From Schizochytrium sp. TIO01 (lineage: Eukaryota; Protista; Bigyra: Labyrinthulomycetes), in NCBI GenBank assembly GCA_004764695.1, contig SMSO01000031.1, positions 5,748,761 to 5,812,760 on the forward strand: a DNA stretch of 64,000 nucleotides. The letters are read 5' to 3'. The translations under genes were made by a program, and so were the position numbers. The notes below the pieces were generated by a model that saw only the letters and a program-made list of their open reading frames with translations, had not been told where the DNA came from and searched no databases. Shown piece after piece: positions 1 through 54,806 of this stretch (the first letter of the stretch is position 1; each line of letters opens with the position of its first letter).

Positions 1-3000
1 CACTATGTGTAATGTACGCTGTATCAGCACTGAGACTCACCGGCCCACTCGCGGATATACCGCCAACGCCACTCAGTGCACCTCCATTCACGGTCATGCC
101 GTTTACAATGACATTGCCACCAGAGCTGATGTCCAAATCTGCTCCTGTGCCACCATTATGAGTAATGGATTGTCCAAGAGAGCTCGCCATGAGTAGACTA
201 CCGGCAGAGTTTGTTAGGTCACCACTCATTCCAAGATCACCCACTGAAGACACGTCGGTGGCGTCAAACGTGATACCCTCAATAGCTACATTGCCCCCAG
301 ATGAGATCAGTAGCTGGCTACCAGTGCCACCAGTGTGTGTGATAGCTTGCGAGCTTGTCGAAGCAAGAAGCAAACTTCCAGCAGAGGTGGTGAAGTCGCT
401 GGTCATAGTCAAGGTTGAAACACCATCGACAGCGGTGCCTGTAAAGGTGACGTCCTCGACTGCAACAAAGCCAGACGCCGACTCGATAGTCAACGACGTA
501 GCGCCTGTATGCAAGATTTGTGCTTCATCTTTAGAGAGCACCAAGTCATCCGAACTGTCAACCCCGGACGCTCCAGAAATAAAACCGTCCTTCAAGGTAA
601 CCCCATTGATTACAACATTGCCTCCAGACCCGATTGTGAGGTCCTCGCCAGACCCACCTGTATGTGTAATGGCTTGTGCTAGAGAAGAGGCCAGCAAGAC
701 ATTCCCTGCACTATTCGACAGGTCTCCACTCATGCTCATCTCACCTATGGAAGAAACCGATGTCCCATCAAAAATGACATCTTCCACCAACACACTTCCA
801 CTTTGCGAGCTTACGCTCAAAGATGTGGTACCAGTATGAAGAATTGAGCTCGTATCTTTAGTCATCGCCAAATCATCATCCATGGTCACGGCCTGCACAC
901 CAGTCATTGTGCCATGATCGATAGTGATCCCGTTGATTACAACATTGGCACCAGAGCTAATAGTGAGATCTTCACCTGCGCTACCCGTGTGCGTGATGGC
1001 TTGACTACTTGCAGATGCAAGGAATATATTGCCAGTATCAATACTGAGATCACTGGACATCTCTGCCGATGCAATGCCTGTGAGAACTCCATTTTTCACA
1101 GTGACCCCATTCACGACAATATTTCCAGCTTGAGAACTGATCAAGAAGTCTTGGCCGGCTCCTCCCGTGTGCGTGATTGCCTGAGACAGCGAGCTTGTAA
1201 GGTAGAGATTGCCAGAAGAAGATGAAATATCGCCTGACACTGAGATTGTCGATATCGAAGAAATACTTTGACCGTCAAAGACAACGTCTTCAATTTGCAC
1301 GGTTCCTAACGTCGATGAAAGTGCTAGAGATGTAGCTCCAGAATGCTGGATACGCGCAGTGTCTTTTGAGAACGAAGCATCGTCACTCATGGTGATGCTG
1401 GTGACTCCAGACAGTGCTCCAGAGTTGTGCACTATGCCATTGATAACGACATTGGCTCCGGAAGATATAGTGAGATCTTGTCCTGTCGAGCCTGAATGAG
1501 CAATTGCTTGTGCACCTGAGCTGGATAGTAGAAAATTACCAAGTGAAAGGGTAGCATCCCCGGAGACAATCTCCAGCTGGCCATTCATAGTTAAATCTGT
1601 CACCCCAGAAATATCAGTCCCATCCATTGTGATCCCCTCTACGGTGACAGAGCTAGCTGAAGAGATTGAGAGTGAACTTGTTCCAGAATGTTCGATTGTT
1701 GCACTGTCTTCTGTGAAGGTAAGGTCTGCGCTCATTGTAAGACTCGTGACCCCCGTAACAGTACCCTCGTTTACACTGACACCATCTAGAACAAGATCAC
1801 CGTTTGAACTAAGAACGAATGCTGAGTTATCTGTGTGCGATATTTCTTGGGATCCAGTACCTGAAAGTATGATGTTTCCACCACTATTCGTAAGGTCGCC
1901 CTCCATAGTGATGCTTATCGCACCGCTGACAGCTCCATTGTTGATCGTGACATCATCAAGAATGAGGTCCCCACCGGAGGTTACTTCTAAAGTACTAGAG
2001 TCGTCATGCGAAATCAGTTGAGATCCAGCTTTACTAAATGTCAGATCTCCGCCGGAGATTTCGACACTGCTAGACACTGTCAAGGTTGAAACTCCAGTGA
2101 CAATGCCATCTTGTACTGAAACACCATCTAAAACTAGTTTCCCACCAACAGATGATACCTCAAGATCACCTCCACCGGTTTGTGATATAGTTTGTAGGCT
2201 TGACGATGAGAGTAAAAAATCGCCACTTTCAAGCGTTGCTCCTCCAGAAGAAAGAACAAGATCCCCGCTCATGTCAATGGTTGTAACGCCAGAAAGTGCA
2301 CCAGATGACACTGTAACACCATCCACAAGTACATCACCGCCAGACTCAATCGTTAAGTCGACTCCAACCCCACCAGTATGTGTAATCTTCTGACTACCTG
2401 AGGAGGTAAATAAAACACTTCCAGAGCTAAGCTCTATATCACCTGATTGTGTTGTCATAGTGTCTGTCATTGTTAGCGTCGAGATACCAGATAAAGAACC
2501 TTCATTTATCGTAACACCCTCCGTAATTAGGTTACCTCCAGTTACGATACTTAATGATGATGTTCCAGAGTGTGTGATAACGGCATCTTCACTTGTGAGC
2601 GTGATGCTGTCTGCTACTGCTAATGATGTGACTTCGGAAATGGAACCTTCGTTGATTGTAACACCATCTAGAACAACAGCGCCACCAGAATCAATAATTA
2701 GTTCGGAGCTATCAGGATGCGTAATTGTCTGAGAACCTTGACCAGAAAGCTGAAATGTTGTACCTGTGCTAGAGAAGGTGCCAGACACTGAAAGATCAGC
2801 AACCCCATCAATGTTCCCTGATTGGTGTGTTACGCCATCCGTAACAACACCTCCACCAGAGGAAATAGTCAGCAAAGATGAATGCGTATGAATGATGCTT
2901 TGCGGTCCCAGTGCACTTAAGGTAATGCCACTGCCGGACACATCAAGACTGCCACTCATCGCCATAGACCCAGCTCCTGAGATGTCGCCAGCATTAAATG

Positions 3001-6000
3001 TTACTTCCGCCGCAATAAGACTTCCAGAAGTGCTTATCTCTAGAGAAGTCGTTCCAGTGTGAAGAATCGTAGCCATATTGTTGGTGAACTCAATACCCTC
3101 TGTAAGTTGAAGATTGCCGACATCAAACATATCTCCATCTTGGATCGAGACCCCATCTACCACAACATTTCCGCCTGAAGAAATTAAAAGATCCTCACCA
3201 GATCCACCTAAATGACTTATTGCCTGTGAGGTTGCGCTATCAAATACAACGTTACCATTACTTAAAGAAAGATCTCCACCACCCATGCTTAAAGCACTGA
3301 TCCCGCTCATCTCACTGCCATCAATATAGATATCCTCCATAGCAATGGAGCCTGAGCTTGCACTCACGGCTAAATCACCAGATCCAAGATGAAGTAATTG
3401 TGCTGCAGAACCACTCAACATGAGGCTCTGAACTGCTGAGATCTCTCCCTGATTTATTGTCACGTCATTTACTACAACATTTCCTCCAGAGGAAATACTT
3501 AAATCTCCTCCGCTTGTGCTACCAGTGTGCGTAATATGTTGACTTGCTGAATTTGTGAACAAAAGACCTCCGGCTGCTAAAGAAATGTCATTGGCCGTTT
3601 GCAAAGTGCTCACCCCAGTAATATCCCCAGAATCGAATGTGATATCGTCTATCATAATTATGTTTGAAGTAGAGGTAATTGACAAAGAAGTACTTCCGGT
3701 GTGAGCCAATGAAGCAAGCTCCCCACTTAAAAGTAAGTCCGCTGACATTTCAATGCTCGATACACTCGTTATTGCGTTGCCATCAAAGACAACATTTTCG
3801 ATGCCCACAGTTCCTGATGATGAAAGAATGCTGAGGGAAGTAGCGCCAGTATGTGTAATGGTGGCATCGTTTTGTGTCAATATTAAACTCCCGGACATTG
3901 AAAGGTCAGACACTCCTCGCAGTTCTCCATCATTCAATGTGACGCCATCAACCACAATGTTTCCACCTGACGTGAGTGTTAAGTCCTCACCAATACCTCC
4001 GGTGTGAGAAATTGATTGAGCTGTTGAGCTTCCTAAAAATATGCTTCCGAGAGAGAGAGTTAGGTCTCCAGACATTCCCAACCCATCGATGCCTTCTACT
4101 TGCCCTGTTTTAAAAGTAGCTCCTGCAATCACGACATTTCCTCCTGATGACAGGATTTCAAGATCTGCGCCAGCACTACCGATGTGCGTTATCTTTTGAG
4201 CGGATGTTGAAGAAAATAGAATACTACCTGCGCTCATCGAAAGGTCTTCAGACATTGAAAGAGATCCAACGTTTGAGAGATCACTACCATCGAACGCAAC
4301 ATTTTCAATAGTTACCAAACCAGAGGTCGACTCGATTGACAGACTAGTGCTTCCAGCGTGTGTGATTGCTCCAATGTCTTTGGTCATTGTTAAATCCGCA
4401 CTCATTGAGAGATCCACCACTCCTGAAACAGATCCTCCATTGAAAAGAACATCCTCAACGCGGACGATTCCACTAGACGAAGTAATGACAAGACTGGTGC
4501 TACCAGTGTGGGTGATCTGGGCAGCATCTTGACTCATTGTCATCGAGTTTGACATGGAAAGCGTGGAAATACCATCCACAGCTCCTGTTGCAAATGAGAT
4601 TCCTTCTACAACAACGTTACCACTAGAAGAGTCAATAGTAAGGTCTTGTGCTGCGGCCCCAGTATGTAAAATTGACTGAGCACCGCTGCTCGTAAGCAAG
4701 ATTTGCCCACTTGAAATGGAAAGATCATTAGTCACCGAAAGCGATCCAATACCAGTAATATCACCGCCATTAAAGACGACATCTTCTACAGATACAGTTC
4801 CAGATGAAGAAGAAATTGCAAGAGATGATGATCCTAAGTGAGAAATTTGGGCGATCGACTTTGTCAGTGATAGGTCTCCTGACATGTCAACTGTTGTAAC
4901 AGAGGAAAGAGCTCCATCAGAGATGATTACATCCTCAACCCGAACAGGACCTTGATCTGATACCACATGGAGTTCAGTTGCTCCGGTATGTCGAATAGTG
5001 GTAGTTGACTTGGACAGAGAAAGGTCATCCGTCATGCCCAAGGTAGAAACTTGTGATATTGCTTGATCTTGAAAGAGAACACTCTCAATATTCACCAACC
5101 CTAAAGCGCTTTCCAATACAAGTTGTGTGTTTCCTGTATGCTGAATTCCTACGGAGTCCCCAATCATGGTTATGTCACTAGCTATGCTCATAGAAGATAT
5201 GCCAGAAAGAGCAGAGTTAGCATGGGTAACGCCATCTACAACTACATTTCCACTTGAAGAAGAAATGTCAAGGTCAGCTCCGGCCGCCCCACTATGCGTG
5301 ATTTGTTGAGAGGCCGTTGATTGTAAATCGATATTTCCAGATGCCATAGTGAGGTCTCCATTCATCGAAACAGTCGAAACAGATGAAAGTGCAGCTCCCT
5401 GAAATATTACATCTTCAATTTTTACAGTACCAGAGGTCGAGACTACCTCCAAAGAACCTGCACCTGAATGTTCTATGCGCGCTGTGTTTGCAGTCAGCTG
5501 CAACGGCCCTGCCATGGTCTGCGAAGACACCCCCGAAAGTTCTCCATTGCTAACCGTTACTCCATCTAGCACAACATTACCTTCTGATCTAATCGTAAAG
5601 TCTTGTCCTGATCCACCAGAGTGAATGATGGCTTGAGCATTGGAAGACTGCAATAAGATATTTCCTGTACTCAATCTCAAAATACCATTTATGTCAATAT
5701 CTTGAATATTTGACATTGAGGCGCTGTCAAACAGAATATCTTCAACACTGATGCATCCACTTGTTGAAGTGATGCTAAGAAGAGTTGCTCCCGAGTGATC
5801 AATATAAGACATATCAGCACTCAACTCAAGACGATTTTCTATCTGTAAATCAGTAACGCCACTCACTGCCGCAGCGTCAAAGGTTATATCCTCAATCAAT
5901 ACAGTCCCAGCTGAGGAGACAATAGTCAACGAAGTCACTCCTGAGTGCGCGATGGTTGCGGTATCTTTGGACACCGTTATATCGCCACTGGCCTGGAGTG

Positions 6001-9000
6001 TAGAGACTCCGGTAATTGTAGTGTCCTGGAAAGTAACCCCTTCAAGATAAACAACTCCTGAATCTGATTCAATCGTGAGAGATGTCCCGCCGCTATGCTG
6101 GATACGCGTCACATCTTTTGAAAATCGCAAATCATCTGACATATCGATAGTAGAAACCCCAGATAATGCATCGCCTTCAAACGTTACGCTTTCAACAATA
6201 ACATTACCTTGTACACTAGACAACGAGAAATCACCTACTCCACCTGGACTACCAGTGTGTACAATTTCTTGACTTGAAGTTGATTGAAAATAAGCATTAC
6301 CCAGTGTACTACTGATATCACCAGAAAGGTCAAGATTTCTGACTTCGGAAATATCAGGGCCGTCAAATGTAACACTCTCAAGAGATACATAACCCGACTG
6401 AGACGCAATAGTGAGAGATGTAGTACCACTATGCGTCAAAGAAGCAGCGTTCTTACTCATAGTCAAATCATTGGACATTGATAAAGTTGTTACCGAAGAC
6501 ATCGCGGACCCACTAAAAACTACGTTCTCGACCACAACATTGCCTGCAGTGCTTACAAGATGAAGATCCCCATTCGCGCCTCCAGTATGGCGGATTCGCT
6601 GAGTAACTGTGCTCGTAAATGAGACGTCGCTATTAACAGCGATTGTTTCCACGTTTGAAACAGCTCCGCCACTAAACTGGACATCTTCTATACTTACTGT
6701 TCCCGAGGCTGAAGATATTGCAAGACCTATAGCTCCGCTGTGCACTACATGAGCTTCTGATTGAGACATTATCAGATCGCCCGACATTGAAACAGTTCCA
6801 ATCGCGGATATATCTGCTCCGCTAAACGTGACGTCTTCAACAGTCACAGCACCTTGATCACTAATAATTTGAAGATTACCTGTTGTACCAGTGTGTACAA
6901 TGTTTTGCTTGGTGCTCGCGGAGAGAATAAGATCCCCACTCGCAAGTTCCAAATCTCCAGATGTTTTGATACGGCCACCGTCTTGAAAAATTACATCTTC
7001 CACAACAACATTCGCATTGGTAGATGTTATAAAAAGGTCTTCATTGGAAATGCCTTCATGAATGATATTTTGTGTGCTGGTTGAAGCTAAAATCAAGTCC
7101 CCAGTTTGCAGAGTCAGTACATTCGGGATCACAAGAGATCCGTTTTTTGCTGTTACGCCATCGATTTGTACATTTCCAAATGTTGAGAAAACAACAAGGT
7201 CCTCTCCCACGGCACCTGTATGCAAAATTCTTTGTGATGTGACGCTTGTCAGATCCACATTTCCATTTAATGAAAGAAGACCATCTTCAAAAATAGCATT
7301 TTCAATGTCTACTGCCCCAGAGCTTGATGTAATAGTTAATGGTCCGTCAGATATGATCTCACTTCCTTCGTTGTTTGCATCGAGTATAAGGCTTTGTACA
7401 TTGCTAACAGTGGTGTTTTCAAACAAGATGTTCTCTATCTCAACTCCCTCGTTGGTAGAAGTTAATTTAAAGCGACCTTCTTGAGCTGTAAGACCTCGGG
7501 GAGAAACCCAAAGGGTTTCATTGAGGATAAGAGTGTCATTTTCATGCCGGAGATTCATCGTTGTAAGTAATCCGCCTGCACCATATACAGTGATATATTC
7601 TGCAGGCTGAGATTTAGCGCGCAAATCAAGCGCTGCAAATTCATAGTTCCCAATATCTAGATCAGCTGATGCGGTAAATGATGTGATACCGTTAATCTCT
7701 GCACTACTAGATATTTCTCGCCAGGCTACACCATCAAATATGAGCAAGACACTTCCTCCAGGTGGTATTGCAATATCCCCAGATGTAACCTCTTCGTCAT
7801 CATTTTGCAAAAATAATAACTGTCCAATAGAAGCCTGTGAAGTTGATATGGTCACCAGATTAGACTCCTGCGCACCATCACCTAAAATGCGGACAAAGCT
7901 TTGGTTGGTGAAAACATTTATTGAAGACCCAGCATTTACATTTGCCTTGTCAAAAATAACTTGTCCATTAGCATAGAAGGCGCCCGATGCAGTGATAGAA
8001 GCGCCATTCTGGGTACTAATAGCTTCTTCAGTCAGAATAGGCCCAAAACCAGGCTGTATGCTACCCACAGTTAAATTCCCTGTCATATTAATATCTTCCA
8101 TGTTGCCTGTAGTCAGAATGGTACCTGTTATAACTTTTGTGGGCACGACAAGGGTAGTGTCAGCGCTGTTCGGCGCTTGATCGATGCGTAAGATGACTTT
8201 GTAGGGGTCTGTTCGAGACACTTTAAAGTTGAGAGGTTCACTTCCAGTAATAATTGTGTCAAAGCGTGCAAAGTCATCATGACCATCGAGACCAACAATC
8301 ACATTGCCCGGTAGATACGTTATGCTATCCGAATCTCGATTGTTTTCAATATGCACGTCTCCTTCGCTAATGAGCTGGTCGCCAGTAATGCCAAGACCGC
8401 CCTCGATCGTTAGATTATGTATTAGACTGAGATGCATCTGTTTGAAGTTGACGCGTGTCAAGTTCAATGCCCCGACCGTGATGTATTCAATGAAGTTTGG
8501 CGGATTGAGTTCACGACTAACGATAGTTGCGTTCGTTATATCAATTGCATCCAATACATTCAAACGGCTAGCATTGAGTGTTTCTCCCACTTCTGCACTC
8601 GACACCATGACTTGACCTGCGCGAATTGTGTTTTCAAGGCCAATGTTAATATCTCCGAAACCTTCAGAGATAGATCCAGTCTGCAGTTCACCTCCGACAT
8701 TTAAGTCACCGTCAATTGTTACGTTGTATAATGCGTGAAGAAGTGGCGTGATCACTTGCATCTGACTCGTGTTTAGACGAAGCAGTGTCTCGGATCCAAT
8801 CCGGGTCTGCAGGTCATCCGATGTGCGAATCAATTGTGCACCTTCGGTCAGGTTGGTGCTTGCAGAGTGCGCAAGCATAATTGCTGCACCTTCTTCTGTA
8901 ATACCAACCTGGATCATAGGAAGATGCTCATGGTTTCCTGAATCCTCATTTGTCTCAAGGGGTGTCACCAGCAATGATGGGGCTTCCAGAGTTCCATATG

Positions 9001-10498
9001 CTTTCAGAGGAGTTGAGATTTTCAGAATTTCATTCTCATAGAAAAGAGTGGAAGAGTCGATCGAAACCGAGCCATCTACTTGGGCATCTCCAGAGACGTG
9101 GAGTCGCTTCTCCGGATTGCCTGTACCAATTCCAACCCTCGATGTGTTGGTGGAACTGCCAATTGCAATAACTGAGGATACACCAGAGTCAATAGCTACA
9201 TCATTTGCTGCACGCATCTCGAGTTTGGCATCAGAAGAACGAAGATAGCCGGTCATTCGAAACGAGTCGTCAAAAAGGTGTTCACCAAACTCTAAGATGG
9301 TATATTTGGTGGTCTCCAGACTCCGTCTAGGTTGTGGTTTGGATGAAGGGTTGGACTTCTCAGCCTTAGTTCCCGGACTTTCTCCAGGGGAGATTTCTGA
9401 TTCGGATGTGCTTGTGTGTGCTGTTGTTGCGATTTTAGATGAACCATATAAAAGCCATGGTGCTGGCGAATAAATACTTTGAGCAGGTGTTTGAACTTGA
9501 TTGGAGAATGCTGTTTTCTTAGGTTTGGATGTGCGGGCATCCCCAAGCACGCGTCTTTCCCTGCGGCGTGCTGCCTCACTTTCTGTTTCTTTAGTTGATA
9601 ACCTAATGGTACTAGTGCTTGTGTCTGACGCCTTTGACGAGACTTCGAGCTCGACTTCAGGATTTAGACTGTGGATTCCAATACTTCCATCGGGGGTGAC
9701 GATCGAGGACTCTTGGATTAGGAGGTTCGAAACGTCGAATTCAATACCATAGTACTGACGCAAAAGCACAGACATGACCCAAAGCACGAAAAGAATCGTC
9801 AAACTTAATAAAGCGCCCCAGGTAGCAAATAAGAGAGCACGTTTACGATATCGAAATGGGTTATATGATAAATCTCGCGCTGTGAGAAGCTTTTCTGCTT
9901 CTTTGTCTGGAAGAATTCGAGCCCCTCGTCCAGTCAAAAATCCTCGAAGTTGTGTACCTGTCTTTGTCATTGGGTTCGCCCCGCGCGTTTCAGCATTTGT
10001 GTCTTCGTCGTCAGATTTTTCATCACCCTCTGTATCTGAATCATCCACTAGGTCTTTGTCTACCACGCCTTTTGCCCCAGCTTCCCTCAGAGCTTCTGCA
10101 AGCATGTCCTTTGTATCGGGCATATTCAGGTCGCTTCCACTATCATCAACTTCTCCTTTCCCCTTAGTATCGCTCGCTCCAGTTTTGGCGCCCCAAGCTT
10201 GGCTCGGAGCTTTTGGTGAATCCGGTTCAATGCCTACTGAAGAAATCTTTCTCCATCCGCGTTTCTTTTTTTGTTTCTGTGCTACATTCTTCAAGCCTTG
10301 AGTTTCATGCGCCTGCCTTGTTGTGGATAATTTATTTTTGCCAACTTTAGAGCTCAACATGTCATTCTGTGAATCATTGATGCCTTCTTGAGTATCTTCA
10401 AGATTGGTTGATTTCTTCTTCGTGTTATCAACAATTTGGGACGAGGCCCCTTCGTCCTGTGACTTCCGCCTCTCGGCCCACGTGAGGTATTCGTCCAT
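1..10498 (-). CDS. Giant type II membrane-anchored beta-repeat (fibre/adhesin-like) protein, at least 3499 aa, 3' end outside the window
   Basis: Manual minus-strand translation: ATG at 10496-10498 in ACC-ATG-G context, in-frame TGA just upstream (10505-10507), no stop down to base 1. Starts MDEYLTWAERRKSQDEG. Hydrophobic helix RYRKR-ALLFATWGALLSLTILFVLWVMSVLL at 9761-9838. About 45 I-x-H-[TS]-G repeats below 7.3 kb. The longer plus-strand ORFs of the track here (165, 1629, 2097, 2460, 3753, 7062, 9774 etc.) all share one frame, as expected for antisense shadows. Confidence 0.93.
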   Translation of the reverse strand, partial: MDEYLTWAERRKSQDEGASSQIVDNTKKKSTNLEDTQEGINDSQNDMLSSKVGKNKLSTTRQAHETQGLKNVAQKQKKKRGWRKISSVGIEPDSPKAPSQAWGAKTGASDTKGKGEVDDSGSDLNMPDTKDMLAEALREAGAKGVVDKDLVDDSDTEGDEKSDDEDTNAETRGANPMTKTGTQLRGFLTGRGARILPDKEAEKLLTARDLSYNPFRYRKRALLFATWGALLSLTILFVLWVMSVLLRQYYGIEFDVSNLLIQESSIVTPDGSIGIHSLNPEVELEVSSKASDTSTSTIRLSTKETESEAARRRERRVLGDARTSKPKKTAFSNQVQTPAQSIYSPAPWLLYGSSKIATTAHTSTSESEISPGESPGTKAEKSNPSSKPQPRRSLETTKYTILEFGEHLFDDSFRMTGYLRSSDAKLEMRAANDVAIDSGVSSVIAIGSSTNTSRVGIGTGNPEKRLHVSGDAQVDGSVSIDSSTLFYENEILKISTPLKAYGTLEAPSLLVTPLETNEDSGNHEHLPMIQVGITEEGAAIMLAHSASTNLTEGAQLIRTSDDLQTRIGSETLLRLNTSQMQVITPLLHALYNVTIDGDLNVGGELQTGSISEGFGDINIGLENTIRAGQVMVSSAEVGETLNASRLNVLDAIDITNATIVSRELNPPNFIEYITVGALNLTRVNFKQMHLSLIHNLTIEGGLGITGDQLISEGDVHIENNRDSDSITYLPGNVIVGLDGHDDFARFDTIITGSEPLNFKVSRTDPYKVILRIDQAPNSADTTLVVPTKVITGTILTTGNMEDINMTGNLTVGSIQPGFGPILTEEAISTQNGASITASGAFYANGQVIFDKANVNAGSSINVFTNQSFVRILGDGAQESNLVTISTSQASIGQLLFLQNDDEEVTSGDIAIPPGGSVLLIFDGVAWREISSSAEINGITSFTASADLDIGNYEFAALDLRAKSQPAEYITVYGAGGLLTTMNLRHENDTLILNETLWVSPRGLTAQEGRFKLTSTNEGVEIENILFENTTVSNVQSLILDANNEGSEIISDGPLTITSSSGAVDIENAIFEDGLLSLNGNVDLTSVTSQRILHTGAVGEDLVVFSTFGNVQIDGVTAKNGSLVIPNVLTLQTGDLILASTSTQNIIHEGISNEDLFITSTNANVVVEDVIFQDGGRIKTSGDLELASGDLILSASTKQNIVHTGTTGNLQIISDQGAVTVEDVTFSGADISAIGTVSMSGDLIMSQSEAHVVHSGAIGLAISSASGTVSIEDVQFSGGAVSNVETIAVNSDVSFTSTVTQRIRHTGGANGDLHLVSTAGNVVVENVVFSGSAMSSVTTLSMSNDLTMSKNAASLTHSGTTSLTIASQSGYVSLESVTFDGPDISEVRNLDLSGDISSTLGNAYFQSTSSQEIVHTGSPGGVGDFSLSSVQGNVIVESVTFEGDALSGVSTIDMSDDLRFSKDVTRIQHSGGTSLTIESDSGVVYLEGVTFQDTTITGVSTLQASGDITVSKDTATIAHSGVTSLTIVSSAGTVLIEDITFDAAAVSGVTDLQIENRLELSADMSYIDHSGATLLSITSTSGCISVEDILFDSASMSNIQDIDINGILRLSTGNILLQSSNAQAIIHSGGSGQDFTIRSEGNVVLDGVTVSNGELSGVSSQTMAGPLQLTANTARIEHSGAGSLEVVSTSGTVKIEDVIFQGAALSSVSTVSMNGDLTMASGNIDLQSTASQQITHSGAAGADLDISSSSGNVVVDGVTHANSALSGISSMSIASDITMIGDSVGIQHTGNTQLVLESALGLVNIESVLFQDQAISQVSTLGMTDDLSLSKSTTTIRHTGATELHVVSDQGPVRVEDVIISDGALSSVTTVDMSGDLSLTKSIAQISHLGSSSLAISSSSGTVSVEDVVFNGGDITGIGSLSVTNDLSISSGQILLTSSGAQSILHTGAAAQDLTIDSSSGNVVVEGISFATGAVDGISTLSMSNSMTMSQDAAQITHTGSTSLVITSSSGIVRVEDVLFNGGSVSGVVDLSMSADLTMTKDIGAITHAGSTSLSIESTSGLVTIENVAFDGSDLSNVGSLSMSEDLSMSAGSILFSSTSAQKITHIGSAGADLEILSSGGNVVIAGATFKTGQVEGIDGLGMSGDLTLSLGSIFLGSSTAQSISHTGGIGEDLTLTSGGNIVVDGVTLNDGELRGVSDLSMSGSLILTQNDATITHTGATSLSILSSSGTVGIENVVFDGNAITSVSSIEMSADLLLSGELASLAHTGSTSLSITSTSNIIMIDDITFDSGDITGVSTLQTANDISLAAGGLLFTNSASQHITHTGSTSGGDLSISSGGNVVVNDVTINQGEISAVQSLMLSGSAAQLLHLGSGDLAVSASSGSIAMEDIYIDGSEMSGISALSMGGGDLSLSNGNVVFDSATSQAISHLGGSGEDLLISSGGNVVVDGVSIQDGDMFDVGNLQLTEGIEFTNNMATILHTGTTSLEISTSGSLIAAEVTFNAGDISGAGSMAMSGSLDVSGSGITLSALGPQSIIHTHSSLLTISSGGGVVTDGVTHQSGNIDGVADLSVSGTFSSTGTTFQLSGQGSQTITHPDSSELIIDSGGAVVLDGVTINEGSISEVTSLAVADSITLTSEDAVITHSGTSSLSIVTGGNLITEGVTINEGSLSGISTLTMTDTMTTQSGDIELSSGSVLFTSSGSQKITHTGGVGVDLTIESGGDVLVDGVTVSSGALSGVTTIDMSGDLVLSSGGATLESGDFLLSSSSLQTISQTGGGDLEVSSVGGKLVLDGVSVQDGIVTGVSTLTVSSSVEISGGDLTFSKAGSQLISHDDSSTLEVTSGGDLILDDVTINNGAVSGAISITMEGDLTNSGGNIILSGTGSQEISHTDNSAFVLSSNGDLVLDGVSVNEGTVTGVTSLTMSADLTFTEDSATIEHSGTSSLSISSASSVTVEGITMDGTDISGVTDLTMNGQLEIVSGDATLSLGNFLLSSSGAQAIAHSGSTGQDLTISSGANVVINGIVHNSGALSGVTSITMSDDASFSKDTARIQHSGATSLALSSTLGTVQIEDVVFDGQSISSISTISVSGDISSSSGNLYLTSSLSQAITHTGGAGQDFLISSQAGNIVVNGVTVKNGVLTGIASAEMSSDLSIDTGNIFLASASSQAITHTGSAGEDLTISSGANVVINGITIDHGTMTGVQAVTMDDDLAMTKDTSSILHTGTTSLSVSSQSGSVLVEDVIFDGTSVSSIGEMSMSGDLSNSAGNVLLASSLAQAITHTGGSGEDLTIGSGGNVVINGVTLKDGFISGASGVDSSDDLVLSKDEAQILHTGATSLTIESASGFVAVEDVTFTGTAVDGVSTLTMTSDFTTSAGSLLLASTSSQAITHTGGTGSQLLISSGGNVAIEGITFDATDVSSVGDLGMSGDLTNSAGSLLMASSLGQSITHNGGTGADLDISSGGNVIVNGMTVNGGALSGVGGISASGPVSLSADTAYITHS

Positions 10499-11486: not shown

Positions 11487-12411
11487 TTATGTTTGCAGGG
11501 ATTGTGAGAGCTCTGCAACAGCATGCATAAGGAGCTGAAACTGTTTGCGTCGAAGATCGAGCTGGTTGAGTACGTCCTGTTCACGATTACGGAGAGTCTC
11601 AAGCTCTGCCTGTACCTCCGCAACAGCTGCCTGGGATACCGCGCGGGGAACCTCGGTGTTGACTTGCGAGGCCAAGGTTTCGCACTCTTCTTTCCGTTGG
11701 CGCATAAGTTTTTCGTTTACGAGTTCCGTTTGAAGCTGTGTAATATCCTTTTCGGCCTCACCAATGCGTTTCTCTGTGTGATGTAAAGACATTATAATGT
11801 TAGAGACTTGATCTATCACAATGATGATAATTTAGATGTTGGCAGTTCCAAGTTCACGTACGAATTTCGTTATCCAAATGCTTGTATTGGTTGATCTCCT
11901 CCTCGGCAAGTTTGGCAACCATGCTTGCCTTGTCGAACTCTAGCTCAAGCATACCAAGTTCGCGCAAGAATGTGTTCAACGCTGATTCACTGTGTCCGTA
12001 GGAAGTAAATGTCTGTCAGTTGAGAGGCCCTTCAATCTCACATCTCTTCCTAAGCATAACGTACCTGCCAGCATCTGTTTCGCCCTGCAAAGCAAGGAAT
12101 GCCCTGGTGCATTGTGCTACCGATGGTTCGCTTGCTGGCACCACCGAATCTCGCGCCACAAGTCTCTTGTTCACAATCGCTGCAGAATCACCATTTGAAC
12201 TATGTCAGTTTTCAGCCCTACGCAACCTTGTTCAGTGCGCTACTAAACATTTCAATATGCTTGAAATGGATTCCTTCCTCGCATGTTCCAGACTTTTGCA
12301 CTCTCACAGCGTCGCGTTCCTTGCGAGATCGAAGTCGCGCTCGCAGCACAGAAGTTCGGGTGTGCCTGCATCCAGGCGTTTGAACTTCAACCTGTGCTTA
12401 CCTTGGTCCAT
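11487..12411 (-). CDS. THOC7: THO complex subunit 7 (THOC7/Mft1), 4 exons: 12402-12411, 12065-12179, 11862-11989, 11487-11773; 179 aa
   Basis: GT-AG introns join in frame (540 nt total): MDQAIVNKRLVARD...FLRELGMLELEFDK...EKLMRQRKEECETLASQVN..PR...LDLRRKQFQLLMHAVAELSQSL, matching the THOC7 C-terminal signature. Confidence 0.85.
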
Positions 12412-14341
12412 GCTGCTGTTAGGAGTATTCTCCCCACTAGCCTGTGCTCTGGCGGAGGTCTTGGACTTCCTTTGCGTGCTCTTAGGCGGCAGCTCGAGCA
12501 GCGCTGCGTTGCGGCGAAGCGGGTCTGAGCCCTCCACAACAAAATTAAGACCTTACTAACCTATTACTTACCTACTAAGTACCTACAGGTCCTAGCCGCC
12601 TCTAGAGTAACATGCGAAAGCACTGACCTTGAACGGAGTACAAAGTATAAAACGTTCGGAGCGGAGAGAAGCAAAAGCAACAGCCTCGTAAATGTTACTC
12701 TGAAAGAGTAGTAGATTATGACACCTTATGCAAGGAAATTGTTGACGTCAAGCTGCATCTTCCGCTAGCTTGCTAGCTAATTTCAGGTCCTTAACCTCTG
12801 GAAAAAAATGCGACATTGAAATGAAGACGGGGTGGTATACTCGACTTGCGAAGCCGACCCGGGCAAACGCTACACAGGTTCTTCAAGATCCGCTGTGTCT
12901 TGTTCGCGATTTTGCTTGTGATGTTAGTAGTTTTGCACAGTCTACGTATGACGAAGAGCACACATGGTGCATCGAGCTCAACCCAGTTTCCCCTCTACGT
13001 CTCGTGCTGTTCTGCATATTCTGTGCAAGAATCAGTTTTGAGGGTTTAAATCTAGCTCGGGAATGAAGACCAAGTCTGGGTCAAGTTGCCAAATGATTGT
13101 CTGGAGAGGAAAGTCAAATTACACGCGCTGTGGTTTACTTATCGTGACGATTTTTTCCCAGTTCGAGCAATACTTTTATATCGGTACTCTCAAAACCACT
13201 TCGCAGTATCTATAAGGTGTTTGCCGGTAACCCATGCTTTTGTCTTTGTGCGTTGCTAATTTTCATTAAAGATTTCGTGTCAGGTTCACCACATAATCTT
13301 ATGATATATATGTATCTATTTATGGCTCATCGACTACGATTCCAAACTATTCTGCTCTTTACTAAATGCCATAGTGAGCCATTTGGAACAAGCACGAGTT
13401 ATTTCAGCATCGACAGGGAACTACTTTTTTGCAGATTGATTTTGTTTTATAATAATAAATTATGACATCTTCAAAGCTGGAAACAACAGCGATGCTTGCA
13501 GTTAAGAAACTCAATTGCATCAGTCCTTCAGGTCAGAACAACCATACCGCCCGTGAGAGCTCTGCCCGATAGCAAGTCAAATCTCTCTGTGCAATTGAGC
13601 CAATGTAAGTCCTCCAACCATCTCAAGTATCAGCTTCAACGCTTCTTCACCCAATCCGAAGACAAAGTTTGTTTCCACGCTAATGACAGTGCTAACTTCA
13701 CACAAGTAAACTGCAAATTTTCACCCGCTCTCACAGACTTTCCCTTGATTGCGCTCGCGCCAGCAAGTTCCAGCCCTCCGCACCTTGCTGCGACCAGAGT
13801 TTTCGTTCATTGAACCATTTTCAGCCTCTTCAACTCAAGTTCATTCAACAAGTGATCCAAAAATCACAATGGATACCATCGTAGTCCCTGTCGTCATATC
13901 TTTCCTTCTCTGAGACTCGCCTGACCTGCCGTAGCCGCCCATAGGTAGGTCCTAGTGGTACACAAGCAATTCTTTTCTCTTTCTCAATTTTAATTAAAAC
14001 TTTGAATTAAAATCACAGTTAACATTGAAATTAAAATTAGAGTTATTAAGAGAAAAAAAAAAGAAAAAAAAAAGAAAAAAAAAAAAGGAAAAGATCCTCT
14101 TGTAAATCAAGAACACGAAGCCCTAGCCACTGCTAGTGTATGTGGTAGGAGGCGGTCCTAACTAGGTACTTTGTTGCTCACCATACAACAAAAGGCCTCA
14201 AAAAAGAACAGGGAGAACAAGGAGAAGAAAAGAAGAAAGGCCGCCGAAGCGGAGCCCAAGCAAAGCCCGAACCAGCCTCGCCGAGCTGCCCTTCGAGCCG
14301 CCCTCGTGCTTCGACACCCCCGACTCGCCCGCCACCTCACG

Positions 14342-15292
14342 ATGATTCCGGCGGCACTGCGAGCGGCCTCCCGCCGCACCTCTCTTGCCGCGCTCCCTCG
14401 CCGCCACAGGTTCCATGCCGGTTCCGTCGCAGTGCTGCGCTCCATGACATCCGCCTCGAGGCCCATCTCGGGCCTCCAAGACGCCCCCGTAGCGGCTCCG
14501 CGTGTAGCTGGTAGCCACTACAGGCTGCTCAGTGGAAGCCCCAACGCAGGCTCGGCCAAGGATCGTGCCGGAGAAGAATCTTCACAGGCTAGTTCTGCAG
14601 ACGGTGACTCAAAATCTAACGCTGACGGTGCCGGAGACAACCTTGAGGCAACGCTTGATGTCGTTGAGCCGTCTGTGGCTGCCGATCCTGAGAAAATGTC
14701 TGGTGAGGACCTTCTCGAGCACGCTGTCAAGATCATCTTGCCGGACGATGGCTACGATGTCTCGAGCGTTGCAACCTGGTACAAGAAGGAGGGCGAGGCC
14801 ATTAAATCCGCAGAGTCTCTCGTGGAGATCGAGACTCCCGAGTTCTCATATGACTTTCAATCGAGCGTGACTGGTGTTCTTGCCAAGATCTTAAAACACG
14901 AGGGTGCCGAAGTCAAGTCTGGCTCTGTGCTCGCGTATATTGGCAAGTCCAACGAAGAGGCTGAGGAAATCTTGGCGTACACGCAGAGTGACGAGTACGC
15001 AGAAATTCGCCGCCTCAAGAAAAAACGGGCTGAGGATGCTGAGAAGGAGGACCTCCCACAATCTGAGGAAACCCAGGCTGCCAAGAAGGAGGCTGCTGTT
15101 GATGATGTGCGTTCGTTTTTGCACGGTTTGGAAGGTGATATGAGCGTATATGCAGACAAACTCATCGATGAGGGCTTTGATACGCTTGGGGCACTTGGAA
15201 CGCTCACCATGGAAGATCTCAAGGAGCTCGAGATTAAAAAGGGTCATGCGAGACTCATCCTCCAGGGCGTTGAGGACCTGAAGAAGAAGTGA
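14342..15292 (+). CDS. Probable mitochondrial protein with a lipoyl-like domain (no lipoyl-Lys) and a C-terminal SAM domain
   Basis: First ATG in frame at 14342 gives an Arg/Ala/Ser-rich, acid-free presequence (MIPAALRAASRRTSLAALPRRHRFH). Lipoyl-domain pattern ILP...WYKKEGEAIK..ESLVEIET....FQSSVTGVLAKILKHEGAEVKSGSVLAYI. SAM pattern VRSFLHGL..MSVYADKLIDEGFDTL..L..LTMEDLKELEIKKGHARLIL. Confidence 0.85.
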   Translation: MIPAALRAASRRTSLAALPRRHRFHAGSVAVLRSMTSASRPISGLQDAPVAAPRVAGSHYRLLSGSPNAGSAKDRAGEESSQASSADGDSKSNADGAGDNLEATLDVVEPSVAADPEKMSGEDLLEHAVKIILPDDGYDVSSVATWYKKEGEAIKSAESLVEIETPEFSYDFQSSVTGVLAKILKHEGAEVKSGSVLAYIGKSNEEAEEILAYTQSDEYAEIRRLKKKRAEDAEKEDLPQSEETQAAKKEAAVDDVRSFLHGLEGDMSVYADKLIDEGFDTLGALGTLTMEDLKELEIKKGHARLILQGVEDLKKK

Positions 15293-16034: not shown

Positions 16035-18641
16035 TTACGCGTGCGTGTGGTGATGGTGGCATCCACACGTCAGGTGATCACGAAAACGACCGGCCTTACC
16101 CTCGATGTAAGGTCCTGACTGGTGAATCACGGACGCCACAGAGGGTCCAGGGCCATCATGAAGGCGAGCCTTGCCAGCAACAAAAACTTGCGTCACTTGC
16201 GCGGTTAAAAGCCGCTTGGGGTCTTCGGCGATATTTTCAGACACAACTGTGAGATCAGCAGCAAATCCTGGCTCAATGCGTCCACGAGTTGTCTCTTGTC
16301 GGGCAGCAAAATTTGCACCCAAAGTGTAAAGCTCCAAGGCTTGGACAAAGGTCAAGGTTTCAGTATCATGGAAAACCTCGGCATTCTCACGATCGTGTGA
16401 AGACGGTCGATAGATAGCATCATACATACCAAGAAGAGGTGCACAGCATTCTACCGGTGCATCGGATGAACCACTCACTTGAATTCCAGAGTTGATCAGA
16501 GTCTTCCAGGCATAAGAGTACTTGAGCTGCTCACCATGTACGCGTTCTTTGACCCATGCTGCATCTGTTGGTACAAACGTTGGCTGGATATTAGCAATGA
16601 CCCCACCTTGGGCCATTTGCTCAACGAGATCTGGACCCAAAATTTGGCAATGTGTCAACACAGGACGGTCCTTGGGGCCAAGGCCAGCACTACGGAATGC
16701 TTTGAGTGTGCATTGCGCTGCGTAATCACCGATAGCGTGCGCTTCAATCCGCAAATTCTGCTTGGATGCCTCAGTGACCATACGCAACAATTCTGCAGGG
16801 TCGTGGACGAGGATACCACGGTGATCTGGAGTTGACGATGGGGTAGAATCTTGATGACCAGACTCGCTCTGTTTACTATCGTCAAGATTCCGCAAAGCGG
16901 CAGTATTGGATCCAAGGGCACCATCAGTGAATTTTTTCACCCGGTCTACAGCCAGCATACCAGTAGAGCTTGCCCAGGGGCCATCAATTTCACCAAGTAA
17001 AGGAGTAAGTTGCACACGCAGAGGAAGTTTACCCTCTTGATCAAGCTTACGATATACTTCAAGAGTAGCTTCGTCATTGGTTTCTACACCGGTAAGTCCA
17101 TGACGGAGGCACTCATTGAGACCTTCCGTGACAGATTGTGCAAGGATTGCAGGATTTGTCTCCTTAACGTGAGCAACAACGGCCTCTGTAGCACGTTCAC
17201 GGAGTACACCTGTTGCTTCGCCTGTAATAGGGTCGGTGTCAATTTGCCCACCTGCTACAGGTTTGGGGTTTGTAATGGAGATATGAGCTGCCTCCAGTGC
17301 ACCTGTATTTGCCACTAGAATGTGCAAGCACACACGCCACAGTACAACCTTGGTACCTTCCGGAACAACCTCATCAAGGTCTTGACGAGTGGGGAGAATC
17401 CCACCCATCTTTTCGTGATCCCAACCTGTGCCCAGAATCCACTTTCGATCCGGGTTCGCAGCAGCGAACTTGGCTAGACGTTGCTTGAGCTCAGAAATAC
17501 TTTTGCATCCGAGTAAATCCAAGTTGCGTTTCTTTTCACCAAGCTGGTACACATGGATATGCGCATCAACGAGGCCGGGCAGTACATAGCCACCTTGGAG
17601 GTCATGGACTTGCTGTTTTAATTCCTCTTTCTTATCTGCTGTTTCATCTGCATCTGGTGCGTTCTGTAATAAGGTCGGCACAGGACGGAGATCACTGATC
17701 TTTCCATCTCGGAGTACTAGTTCATGGTCCAAATCAGTAAAGGCGCAGGTTTCCCATTGCCAAAAGTGACCATTACGAAGAATGAGCTCTTCGCCCTTCT
17801 TCTCGTCAGCGTGCGGCGTGTTTGCATCTTGACCATCTTGGCCTCGGAAAAATGACACCAGTTGGGCAAGAGGAGAAGAAGAGGAAATATCAGGCGACGC
17901 GGGGGGTACTTGCTCTGCAGTAATAGTGGAGGGGTATGTAGGCATTTTCATGTGCGAGGGAAGTTGCATCTTGATCATTGCTGGAACCCACTGAGGAAGC
18001 TTCTTGGTCACGGTCTTCATGACAAGTGTGAATACCATCTTTTGACCTTCGGGGGAGAAATGCAAGCCATCCGAAAGCAACGCCGTCAAGTTCGCACACG
18101 TGTAAAGCGTTGAAAATAAGTCAACCACAATAACATTATCGACCTCTGCAAAAGTTTCAACACACAGCCTTGCGTAATTCTTGGTGTTCGCATTAGTGCG
18201 TTCGAGCTGGCCTGTAGCCTTATCTCCATATTTCTTACGTTGATGCTCAAGTCGCATACCCTCATCCACCGGTGGTGGTGTAAGAACTAAAATCTTCACT
18301 TGGCGCTCCTTATCCTTGATCATTTGCACCATAGCTTTCAGATTTTCGCAGTACTCGTCCAAAGGCACAAATTGTTTGGCTCCAGTTGTGCTGAGGACAG
18401 CATCGTTAGCACCGATCCAGATAATCGCTAATTCGCTGTCGACTCCAGATTTTACGGGCGGAAGCTGCTCCAAGAGATTGCCCAGGCCTGCGCGAAGCCA
18501 TCTTGAGTTATACCCCGAGAAACCACGTACCACGACATCCGCTCGACCGGTGAACACTGACGCAAGTCTGTTGCACCAACCTCCCTCCTCGCCGCCGCCG
18601 CGGGCTACAAGGCTATCGCCAAACACCGAGATGCGTTTCAT
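16035..18641 (-). CDS. SGNH/GDSL esterase (IAH1-like) fused to amidohydrolase-3 (YtcJ/LAF3-like)
   Basis: SGNH blocks FGDSL, RGFSGYNS, IGAND and DGLH in the N-terminal ~220 aa. Amidohydrolase motifs VLPGLVDAHIH, WILGTGWD, KKFTDGALGSNTAAL, HAIGD, THCQ, SSDAPV and GRIEPGFAADL. Single open frame; first ATG at 18639-18641 (MKRISVFGDS). Confidence 0.9.
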   Translation of the reverse strand: MKRISVFGDSLVARGGGEEGGWCNRLASVFTGRADVVVRGFSGYNSRWLRAGLGNLLEQLPPVKSGVDSELAIIWIGANDAVLSTTGAKQFVPLDEYCENLKAMVQMIKDKERQVKILVLTPPPVDEGMRLEHQRKKYGDKATGQLERTNANTKNYARLCVETFAEVDNVIVVDLFSTLYTCANLTALLSDGLHFSPEGQKMVFTLVMKTVTKKLPQWVPAMIKMQLPSHMKMPTYPSTITAEQVPPASPDISSSSPLAQLVSFFRGQDGQDANTPHADEKKGEELILRNGHFWQWETCAFTDLDHELVLRDGKISDLRPVPTLLQNAPDADETADKKEELKQQVHDLQGGYVLPGLVDAHIHVYQLGEKKRNLDLLGCKSISELKQRLAKFAAANPDRKWILGTGWDHEKMGGILPTRQDLDEVVPEGTKVVLWRVCLHILVANTGALEAAHISITNPKPVAGGQIDTDPITGEATGVLRERATEAVVAHVKETNPAILAQSVTEGLNECLRHGLTGVETNDEATLEVYRKLDQEGKLPLRVQLTPLLGEIDGPWASSTGMLAVDRVKKFTDGALGSNTAALRNLDDSKQSESGHQDSTPSSTPDHRGILVHDPAELLRMVTEASKQNLRIEAHAIGDYAAQCTLKAFRSAGLGPKDRPVLTHCQILGPDLVEQMAQGGVIANIQPTFVPTDAAWVKERVHGEQLKYSYAWKTLINSGIQVSGSSDAPVECCAPLLGMYDAIYRPSSHDRENAEVFHDTETLTFVQALELYTLGANFAARQETTRGRIEPGFAADLTVVSENIAEDPKRLLTAQVTQVFVAGKARLHDGPGPSVASVIHQSGPYIEGKAGRFRDHLTCGCHHHHTHA

Positions 18642-19259
18642 GCTTGGCTTATGTCTCAAGCCTGTCTCAAACGAGTCGTGCTCAGTTTTGGATTTGATCA
18701 GGGTTGATCTTGGCTTATCTTCAATTTTGATTCTACTTTGTGAATCCTTTCAAGAATTTACAAATCTTTCTTTCTTTTGTTTTGTTTCATTTCGTTTCTT
18801 TCACTTCCACTAACTAAAGCAAACTACCACGGGTTGCTTTACTACTATGATTTAGCTTGAGAGGCACATAGCTAATTTCATTAGTCTGGTGGGACCGCAC
18901 CACGCGCACGGAGTTTTGTAGCAAAAGGTCAAAATCTTTTTCTCTTAACTTAAAAAATAAATTTATATGTTATATATATAATGAACTTTTAAAATAAAAT
19001 TGTATATAAAATGAACTAAGCCTACTCATTGCTATTGTAACCCTATGTAATAGTGGAACATGAGATGGACCAGTACTACTACAGTATCAAATATCAAGCC
19101 CTATAGATCGAGGGATTCGAAGCGCGATAAAAGAAAAGTAAAGGTAAGAAATATGAGAAATAAAAAAAATGTTCTTTCTCAACTTGAAAGGCGGAATCTC
19201 CTTCAATGAATTCCAATTGTGCAAATTAATTCCCTTTCGCGATCCAATTCGGTTGCTGG

Positions 19260-21711: not shown

Positions 21712-22318
21712 CTAGGTCTCTGGCGTTGAAATTGAGCTTGTAAAACCCATCCTCGTGTTTGCATCTATTTGGGATATTCATCGTAGACGAGAAAGTCGAC
21801 TGGCCGCTATCGACCGCCACTAGGCGCCGTGTGGACCTGGACATCTTTCTTGCACCGATACAACATAGCTCGAGCAGGTTTTTTCTATTTGCCATATCTA
21901 TCTCCTGTCACTTATCTATTTAGGCTAGGCTATCAGAGTTCTGGGAACTTGGGATTGCAAAAGTGTACTTAGGTGTAGAACTGTAGAGCGAACTCCCTTC
22001 GTGGCAAGTTTCGTTGCAGCCTGTTGGATTATTGGGTGTAGTGCTCTGCGAGACAAGCAGTCTCAGGAACCCGCTCCACGCCCACCTGCTGACGGCAGGT
22101 ACTATCAGGAGAGCATAAAAACTCTCATCACAACAAATTAAGGACCTGCAAAGAACGCTGAGAGTTCTTCCTTTGATCGCTGGCTTTGTTCGTTTGCCCT
22201 GGAGGCCAACGAGCTAATAAGCGAGTGAGTTAAAAAAATACAAAAATACAGAGGATCTACAAAGCAGCAGAATTAGTAGCAGCCGGGACCGCTAAAGGCT
22301 AGAGTAGCTCACAAGACC

Positions 22319-54100: not shown

Positions 54101-54806
54101 TGATTGACTATGTGGTCAACTTTATTCTCTTGTGAAAGTCTCTCTGCCTTGAGTTAACTCAGCAACTCTCACCCTAGAGGTAAAGCATAGCTGAAGGAAG
54201 GACGGGACGGCAATGGAAGGAAAAGCTTGGTTTTCGATTTTTCATTGTATTTATACCGCCTTTGCCTTTCTTTCCAAAAGTTTGTTTTTATTGGGAAGTT
54301 GACTCGGAAGAAAACTAATGTTTAAATTGATTTTTGCTTTTTTAATGTGTTTTTTTTTTAATTTTAAAAAATAGCCTATAAAATGAGGAAGAAGAGAAAG
54401 GTGGAAGGTGGAAAAGACCGAATGATATCAGTGAGGAGGAATAGTAGTAATGGATAGATGGATACAAAGTAAAGAGAACAAGAGGACCTGAAGCAGAATT
54501 CTTTCATTTAAACTTTCAATAAGAGGTCTTAGAATTTAATAAGCGTAAATAAGGGCGTTGGCATTGAAGCTAGTATAGTAGAGTACCTGCTCGCAGACCG
54601 CACGATTGGCCAGGCCCATTCGGAAAGCAGACCCCAAACGGGCCGAGCAAGATCGTGAGCGCTTGCGCCAAGCAAGTTCGCTTACGACGAACACATATAA
54701 ATCTATAGACTGATCAACCAGTTCGGATCGGCTTGCCGAGTGTAAGACTTCTTCATTTGGTCTGGCGTAGTCTTGCTGGTTTCATTCACAAAACCCCCCA
54801 AGCAAG

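Follow-up and report, generated by a model that had tools for sequence, protein, structure and literature searches.

Modules of phage fibres are known in cellular proteins from two precedents, namely fibre-like adhesins in bacteria and a single tailspike domain in the MYRF proteins of animals and amoebozoans. The mosaic adhesive trimer (MAT) proteins of Bdellovibrio bacteriovorus are cellular surface proteins assembled from phage-fibre modules, with a constant N-terminal part and a variable stalk and tip (PMC10769870). The described members comprise ~900-1,150 amino acids (aa) and start with a signal peptide, followed by a conserved N-terminal domain of ~130 aa. In MAT Bd3182, an intertwined trimeric beta-helix carries capping loops made by a V-G...P-x-x-x-L motif, and an S74 domain secures trimerisation and then cleaves itself off; the full-length model measures ~550 Å (PMC10769870). 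MYRF/MrfA resembles these proteins in that its intramolecular chaperone domain is a phage tailspike module set in a eukaryotic membrane protein, but there the domain releases a transcription factor and builds no long fibre (PMC3828593). A putative eukaryotic variant, judged from its sequence, is encoded by a giant open reading frame (ORF) in a stretch of 64,000 nucleotides from Schizochytrium sp. TIO01 (contig SMSO01000031.1, positions 5,748,761 to 5,812,760), hereafter the window.

The gene is best read as an old domesticated fibre gene, a eukaryotic counterpart of the Bdellovibrio MAT fibres. We consider it fairly probable that it is a host gene for a giant protein with one membrane anchor, whose outside part consists of phage-fibre modules and likely forms a long trimeric surface fibre, probably serving attachment or contact. 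The membrane-anchored, trimeric form is inferred from the homology with phage fibres taken together with the architecture of MAT Bd3182, and attachment or contact appears the most likely use. The donor of the fibre kit may have been either a phage or a bacterium. On the minus strand, the ORF starts with an ATG at 10498 and continues stop-free for 3,499 codons to the left edge of the window. A charged N-terminus is followed by one hydrophobic helix (aa 221-246), a neck reaching to ~aa 1000 and a repeat stalk:

2 to 10498, minus strand: giant ORF of at least 3,499 aa, with no stop codon and the left end open at the window edge.
9839 to 10498, minus strand: predicted cytoplasmic N-terminus (aa 1-220), charged and of low complexity by sequence.
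9761 to 9838, minus strand: single predicted transmembrane signal-anchor (aa 221-246), Kyte-Doolittle peak 2.45.
9635 to 9691, minus strand: degenerate VGIG-like repeat (aa 270-288) that the orthologues retain.
9071 to 9142, minus strand: VGIGTxxPxxxLHV fibre repeat (aa 453-476), found by viral profile and resembling the MAT capping-loop consensus in PMC10769870.
8648 to 8692, minus strand: first GSIxxGFGxI fibre motif (aa 603-617), by viral GSI profile.
8294 to 8629, minus strand: neck segment (aa 624-735) with conservation limited to the eukaryote-type orthologues found (P0002, P0004, P0099).
8036 to 8080, minus strand: second GSIxxGFGxI motif (aa 807-821), by viral GSI profile.
7709 to 7996, minus strand: beta-sandwich domain (aa 835-930), tailspike C-terminal/CpaA/StcE-like in an AlphaFold2 model.
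7520 to 7702, minus strand: post-sandwich fibre segment (aa 933-993), homologous to myovirus fibre proteins by phmmer and family profile.
2 to 7246, minus strand: repeat stalk (aa 1085 to at least 3499), 44 Gly/Ser/Thr-rich beta repeats of 46-64 aa.

The N-terminus differs from that of the MATs. Instead of a signal peptide and a ~130-aa beta-rich domain, the first 220 aa are charged, close with a conserved R-D-L-[ST]-Y-x-P motif and precede the first hydrophobic stretch at aa 221-246. Five K/R residues flank this helix before and one after, and both the helix and the charge bias recur in the orthologues P0002 and P0099. The eukaryotic membrane anchor proposed in an earlier note on this DNA is thus upheld as a prediction, and the charge distribution would favour a type II topology with the N-terminus in the cytosol. 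Further differences from the MATs are the eukaryotic setting, the length of at least 3,499 aa and the dominance of one amplified repeat.

The earlier note had also listed five fibre-like motifs in the neck and taken them as signs of a viral or bacterial fibre module. All five lie where it had placed them and in one frame, at aa 270-288 (9691-9635), 453-476 (9142-9071), 603-617 (8692-8648), 807-821 (8080-8036) and 918-926 (7747-7721), and the fibre homology extends further than proposed: the VGIGT repeat, the GSI motifs, aa 933-993 and the stalk all match fibre proteins of uncultured phages. A viral VGIGT profile (198 repeats) gives aa 448-478 a score of 23.9 bits, against 3.2 for the best of 200 shuffles and -0.5 for the reversed sequence, and the MAT capping-loop motif V-G-x-G-x-x-x-P-x-x-x-L is present at aa 455-466; as printed in PMC10769870, that consensus is one symbol shorter, probably through a lost character. 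The viral GSI profile (107 repeats) scores 13.9 bits at aa 601-636 and 6.9 bits at aa 800-821, with a best shuffle of 5.5. Both profiles were picked by their core motif and are partly circular. Regular expressions for the motifs were matched rarely in 5000 shuffles of the ORF (VGIGT 1/5000, two GSIxxGFG copies 0/5000), a soft test because the patterns came from the query itself. The remaining two motifs fared less well as fibre repeats. The degenerate VGIG copy at aa 270-288 is a genuine conserved sequence, present in both orthologues, but the viral VGIGT profile gives it no score, and it is a putative, unproven fibre repeat. LLIFDGVAW at aa 918-926 is likewise present but is the last strand of the beta-sandwich, not a free motif. 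Elsewhere in the neck, aa 250-450 reach no more than 11.2 bits with viral ORFs (E 0.014), and no viral match was found for the segment aa 624-735. By eye, aa 730-800 had been taken for a phage FEG...ETTL...DPTADRT module; the viral profile of that module scores P0008 (50 bits) and P0023 (27), not this protein, and the assignment was dropped. In the ESM Atlas, the clusters nearest to aa 390-960 are viral (score 0.90-0.91), which is a lead only.

The segment following the sandwich provides a direct link to viral proteins. With phmmer, aa 930-1000 match viral ORFs in a set of 2,372 ORFs at 24.5 bits (E 3.5e-6; best reversed score 7.8), and a family profile of the segment matched 28 of the 2,372 ORFs and none of the reversed ones. 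The stalk, which makes up ~70% of the visible protein and is preceded by two partial copies of its repeat, has a Gly/Ser/Thr content of 40-45%. Its unit profile found five ORFs at E<1e-3, the best at 26.6 bits; among relatives gathered from one of these, loci L286 and L287 scored 26.0 and 27.8 bits. Conversely, a profile seeded with eight sequences (seven from IMG/VR and P0156, four shorter matches being left out) detects 47 domains in this protein, 13 of them above 10 bits and the best at 22.1 bits, against 1.0 for the reversed sequence and at most 6.3 in 400 global and local shuffles. On these comparisons, the stalk as an amplified phage-fibre module is supported.

The beta-sandwich is the most clearly folded part of the neck. 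In the AlphaFold2 model of aa 780-1000 (45 sequences), the predicted local distance difference test (pLDDT) is 96-97 across aa 850-929, and the model superimposes on tailspike-type sandwiches in the PDB over the whole domain. The top VIA-align match is the C-terminal part of the tailspike of Acinetobacter phage Solidus (24qj; Z 9.4, root-mean-square deviation 1.8 Å over 77 residues), followed by 6o38 (8.3), which we take to be CpaA, TSP4 of phage CBA120 (7rej; 7.5 and 7.1), the KP1 baseplate (7.0), the Pa223 capsid spike (6.6) and StcE(132-251) (4dny; 6.5). These seven chains at Z >=6.5, five from phage tailspikes, baseplates or spikes and two CpaA/StcE modules, are separated from the next at 4.8, although Z values of 7-8 can be generic. 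Foldseek returned the same names from the PDB at E above 0.001 and 31 matches at E<=0.001 from BFVD, with fibre and collagen-like names among the best 50 rows. Pfam PF25692 scored the sandwich at 13.4 bits (E 0.11), short of its cut-off of 25, and matched the family member P0072 at E 9.7e-5. The likeness to the tailspike C-terminal, XD, CpaA and StcE sandwiches thus concerns the fold of aa ~848-930, with 5-15% sequence identity, and the position differs: here the domain lies mid-chain near the membrane, in the others at a tip. Glycan binding is known of such sandwich modules.

Fibres that end in an S74 domain (PF13884) and belong to uncultured myoviruses (L181, L233/L238, L246/L253, L286/L287) share the stalk unit and the post-sandwich segment with the giant protein, and other S74-terminated members from uncultured phages share its VGIGT and GSIxxGFG motifs. 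In L233, L237 and L238 the stalk unit comes after the post-sandwich segment, just as in the giant protein. Six of the seven IMG/VR carriers of the stalk unit, as well as P0156, end in Pfam S74. L238 and L181 precede tail-sheath genes, and L181 also a tail tube gene. An estimated 2,200 stretches in IMG/VR fit a DNA pattern for GSIxxGFGxID; among 12 GSI-motif ORFs scanned, seven match PHROGs, six of these in tail or virion-structural families. In contrast to the giant protein, the myovirus fibres carry the stalk unit as a single strong copy, contain no sandwich and stand in tail operons. With P0012 as query, no viral locus was found.

Several results weigh against descent from phage fibres or qualify it. 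Neither Pfam nor PHROGs gave a significant match to the three thirds of the protein or to the neck, the lowest E values being 0.0029 in PHROGs and 0.0097 in Pfam. No match came from 50,697 cultured-phage records with tblastn (aa 390-779 and aa 780-1000) or from PDB sequences with phmmer (aa 1-1200). The putative fibre links come from custom profiles and from contigs of uncultured viruses. A small viral-seeded post-sandwich profile (eight sequences) scores family members and not this protein; the link rests on the direct phmmer match and the family profile. The stalk evidence is reciprocal rather than independent, because the viral seed was found with the query's own profile, and one reversed ORF reached 17.2 bits with the stalk profile (best real score 26.6). 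The ESM Atlas places the stalk nearest to uncharacterised eukaryotic clusters, with low recognition. The viral FEG...DPTADRT profile gives aa 730-800 no score. By sequence, the sandwich is absent from 274 viral or bacterial loci, so the complete neck was not seen in any one viral protein, and a sandwich tree (52 rows, 98 columns) puts the row of this protein in no supported group. GC content at third codon positions (GC3) is 0.36-0.40 in the giant gene versus 0.45-0.61 in five neighbours. Some of these points would suit a reading in which the resemblances are convergent Gly/Ser/Thr-rich beta patterns without common ancestry, namely the composition of the stalk, the lack of a match in curated libraries and the reversed control at 17 bits. 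However, four different modules match one class of phage proteins, the shuffled stalk stays at or below 6.3 bits where the real one reaches 22, the post-sandwich profile separates 28 ORFs from no reversed ones, and the sandwich, a domain without repeats, has 46 relatives by sequence as well as a fold match. Convergence is thus largely refuted and hardly credible.

How the modules are assembled is a separate question. A single-chain model of the stalk is all-beta with a mean pLDDT of 51.7, and a Foldseek search with it came back empty. The all-beta prediction would fit fibre-derived modules that now act as a single-chain beta-solenoid spacer or tether, on the surface or within the secretory system, such as the bothrosome or the ectoplasmic-net membranes, and not as a trimeric adhesin. 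Two further points agree with this: no S74 domain is visible within the window, beyond which the C-terminus lies, and only one of the 16 N-glycosylation sequons of the ORF falls past aa 1090, which is odd for an exposed surface fibre. However, the poor confidence and missing fold match of the single-chain model are expected of intertwined chains, without being proof of them, and homologous modules occur in S74-terminated phage fibres, a class known to be trimeric (PMC10769870, PMC3828593). We regard the tether as rather unlikely.

For the favoured trimeric fibre, the following mechanism is proposed. The signal-anchor would insert the chain into the endoplasmic reticulum, leaving the N-terminus in the cytosol, and three chains would intertwine into a fibre of the beta-helix or beta-prism type, in the manner of solved relatives with VGIGT loops. 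The trimer would probably be nucleated at the C-terminus, beyond the window, by a self-cleaving chaperone of the S74 type, as in most of the viral and stramenopile relatives. Tandem amplification of one module would set the length of the fibre, estimated at ~0.23 µm for the visible part and at ~0.45 µm if the ORF fills the 20-kb contigs described below (scaled from the MAT Bd3182 model, ~550 Å per ~780 residues). The distal tip, and perhaps the neck sandwich too, may bind glycans on the substrate, prey or other cells. The protein offers a concrete candidate for the grip of thraustochytrid-like decomposers on surfaces or cells. The literature searched, outside of which most subscription papers fell, contained no description of this protein or of a stramenopile S74 fibre family, nor of a eukaryotic membrane protein built over most of its extracellular length from phage-fibre modules. 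A name search of four supplement files of the A. limacinum settlement proteome (PMC12221091) found no 'S74' or 'tail fiber' entry.

The protein is not isolated among eukaryotes. A phmmer search with aa 250-960 against 1.84 billion representatives gave 265 matches at E<=0.001, 150 of which were examined. Among them is P0002 (CAK9111419.1), with 52% identity over a 1,632-aa protein that has the same start, anchor, neck and stalk; its label, Durusdinium trenchii, is suspected to reflect a contaminant, perhaps a stramenopile in that assembly. P0099, encoded at locus L001 (3356-6878), has ~30% identity and keeps the R-D-L-x-Y-x-P motif, the helix and the neck. As read from the sequence, an apparent GT-AG intron lies ahead of its sandwich, near 5540-5598, and the neighbouring gene is intron-rich and resembles SNF2-family helicases. 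Its stalk differs and consists of 10-residue A-N-x-[IV]-x-x-x-[DE]-I-A repeats. Anchor and neck are thus the constant part, and the stalk is exchangeable. Word-index searches found no relative of 1,924-6,124 aa and, among shorter ones, only P0002; with a domain profile (644-2,000 aa covered), only P0002 and P0156 were found.

More distant relatives combine the same domains in other ways. The remaining matches belong mostly to two sets. One consists of multi-copy VGIGT proteins, the motif occurring in 99 of 155 stored proteins (the giant protein counted); the other consists of the 46 of 152 stored proteins that aa 800-960 match at E<1e-3. Pfam scans of the sandwich carriers found S74 in 15 and EGF in 10. 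Organism names were obtained for 6 of the 30 looked up, namely the P0002 label, Pythium, Achlya, Tribonema, Rhizochromulina and a Bacteroidia metagenome-assembled genome. The stramenopile EGF proteins annotated as 'Peptidase S74 domain-containing' (Pythium TMW58446, Achlya OQR93941, Tribonema KAG5188017, Rhizochromulina A0A7S2WWA7), known as database entries, share with the giant protein the block of sandwich and post-sandwich segment at aa ~820-995. They differ in carrying EGF modules instead of a membrane anchor, in their length of 750-1,600 aa and in the S74 domain at their end; no N-terminal EGF module was found in the giant protein by Pfam. The S74 domains of this sister family match the MYRF chain 7dc3. 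In a quick, unrooted tree, from which three near-duplicates were left out, 14 sandwich carriers have S74 domains that group together, apart from 30 viral and other sequences (SH-like approximate likelihood ratio test, 93), consistent with one old acquisition. The fibre event looks old and common to stramenopiles, not private to this gene; the kit would have entered the stramenopiles long ago from a phage or bacterium and been joined to different anchors, here a membrane helix and, in oomycetes and ochrophytes, EGF modules. The protein also points to a family spread across the stramenopiles, oomycetes included, whose fibre chaperones would be self-cleaving.

Other members of the family show further arrangements. 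P0094, P0132, P0066 and P0072, among which only P0066 has a name, are of bacterial type by sequence; in all four, a VGIG repeat stands directly before the sandwich. The stramenopile proteins P0011, P0020, P0021, P0064 and P0090 combine EGF, fibre, sandwich and S74 parts, P0064 without the EGF part, and the five share a cleavage region G-x-V-x-G-S-G-x-Y-x-D-x-S-D-x-R-x-K. The 279-aa P0006 contains a GSI motif, the sandwich and a post-sandwich segment with 71% identity to viral fibres, and ends in PEP-CTERM; it is a bacterial form that uses a different anchor, or else a chimera of the assembly (its contig measures 1,018 bp). A scan of GTDB with P0006 gave only three short partial matches.

The EGF relatives suggest a different use, in which the giant protein would be part of the flagellar hairs of zoospores, a membrane-rooted fibre anchoring or accompanying the tubular mastigonemes, with the sister EGF and S74 proteins forming their thin terminal filaments. 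The best PDB matches of the sister N-terminal EGF module are mastigoneme chains of 9UFE (E 1e-8 to 5e-5), which makes these proteins candidates for the terminal filament, and in P0021 the match extends past the EGF part through a C-x-x-G-x-D-P motif. All four named eukaryotic carriers besides P0002 are stramenopiles from groups with flagellated stages. The zoospore membrane proteome of P. parasitica contains PPTG_14518, an 812-aa EGF protein annotated 'protein autoprocessing' (PMC12223298), which probably belongs to the EGF and S74 family. However, the 9UFE matches are mostly at the level of EGF modules, and the unrelated EGF protein 4z80 scores nearly as high. The counts of PPTG_14518 (6,5,5,5 vs 1,3,9,5, in columns whose meaning was deduced from the PnMas rows) lack the flagellar enrichment of the three PnMas rows. 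The tubular mastigoneme proteins (OCM/PnMas) possess a signal peptide, three or four domains of the EGF-like kind, and lack any transmembrane helix (PMC12223298). The giant protein does not share this plan; it has no EGF module, and its visible 3,499 aa contain a single cysteine. A flagellar role for it is unlikely. A broader scenario, motivated by the 9UFE matches of the sister family and in our view still doubtful, is that an early stramenopile captured a phage-type kit of repeats, sandwich and S74 and made its own hairs from it, the EGF members becoming mastigoneme terminal filaments and the anchored members, through the amplification of a single phage module dozens of times over, surface fibres of up to about half a micrometre. 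If true, part of a stramenopile-defining structure would be of viral descent. The family makes the identity of the terminal filaments directly testable.

The genomic setting bears on the age of the gene. Host genes begin 1 kb upstream of the ORF, and Pfam identifies the right-hand neighbours as eukaryotic (THOC7, lipoyl-SAM, GDSL/amidohydrolase, myosin-MyTH4 and PIH1), the nearest being:

11490 to 11992, minus strand: THOC7, upstream host neighbour (context, not part of the fibre), Pfam PF05615 above cut-off.

The THOC7 intron at 11774-11861 is spliced, and the joint is seen in runs X13, X17 and X20. On this visible, right-hand side no viral structural or replication genes surround the gene, and the view that it sits among ordinary host genes and not in an intact provirus is borne out there; the left flank lies beyond the window. 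The stretch is present, whole or in part, in 20 listed runs from 11 studies. Single ~20-kb contigs in X13 and X17 span the visible gene, with neither a splice joint nor an indel in the ORF. None of the listed runs is recorded as RNA; X14 is probably DNA, and the RNA status of X13, X17 and X20 is a guess. The patchy coverage in X20 was given no weight. The contigs of X13, X14 and X17 all extend exactly 9,008 nt beyond the left window edge, a point at which either the transcript or the assembly may stop; should the ORF run through the whole of the ~20-kb contigs, the protein would reach up to ~6,500 aa. Strain differences within the ORF number 32 (among 40 of the 91 listed), of which 18 are synonymous, 14 missense and none nonsense.

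This setting also bears on the possibility that the ORF was recently inserted by a eukaryotic giant virus (Nucleocytoviricota or mirusvirus) and is a capsid-fibre gene left in a host chromosome. Thraustochytrids host such viruses and swap genes with them (10.64898/2026.07.28.741200), giant-virus collagen-like proteins are among the top Foldseek matches, and the gene is intronless in its visible part and low in GC3, with the left flank beyond the window. Set against these points are the host genes from 1 kb upstream, the occurrence of the gene in runs from 11 studies, its frame being intact where this was checked, and the tail sheath and tube genes in the contigs with the closest module matches. 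In addition, the orthologues are diverged (52% identity in P0002, ~30% in P0099 with its apparent intron), which speaks for long vertical descent. A recent giant-virus origin is therefore very unlikely, and the old domesticated gene is retained as the best reading.

The left end of the window shows signs of variation. In the DNA runs X1 and X2, depth is raised over positions 1-1437 (in X1, ~1075 and 715 versus ~380 further right). In addition, 440-682 has a second copy, which is diverged and branches into another stalk-type repeat. X13, X14, X17 and X18 cross positions 1-1437 in one contig. The raised depth and the second copy suggest recent stalk duplications or a paralogue, with a fibre length that would vary by strain.

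Other genes lie further right. At 54771-56741 (plus strand) lies a 656-aa multi-pass membrane protein with a permease-like look and no Pfam match at E<=1. A biotin/lipoyl domain is fused to a SAM domain at 14162-15292 (plus strand; Pfam). At 16038-18749 (minus strand), a GDSL lipase and an Amidohydro_3 domain share one open frame, as a fusion or as two genes. The myosin at 22280-26479 (plus strand) carries GYF_2 and WW domains at its N-terminus and MyTH4 at its C-terminus (Pfam).

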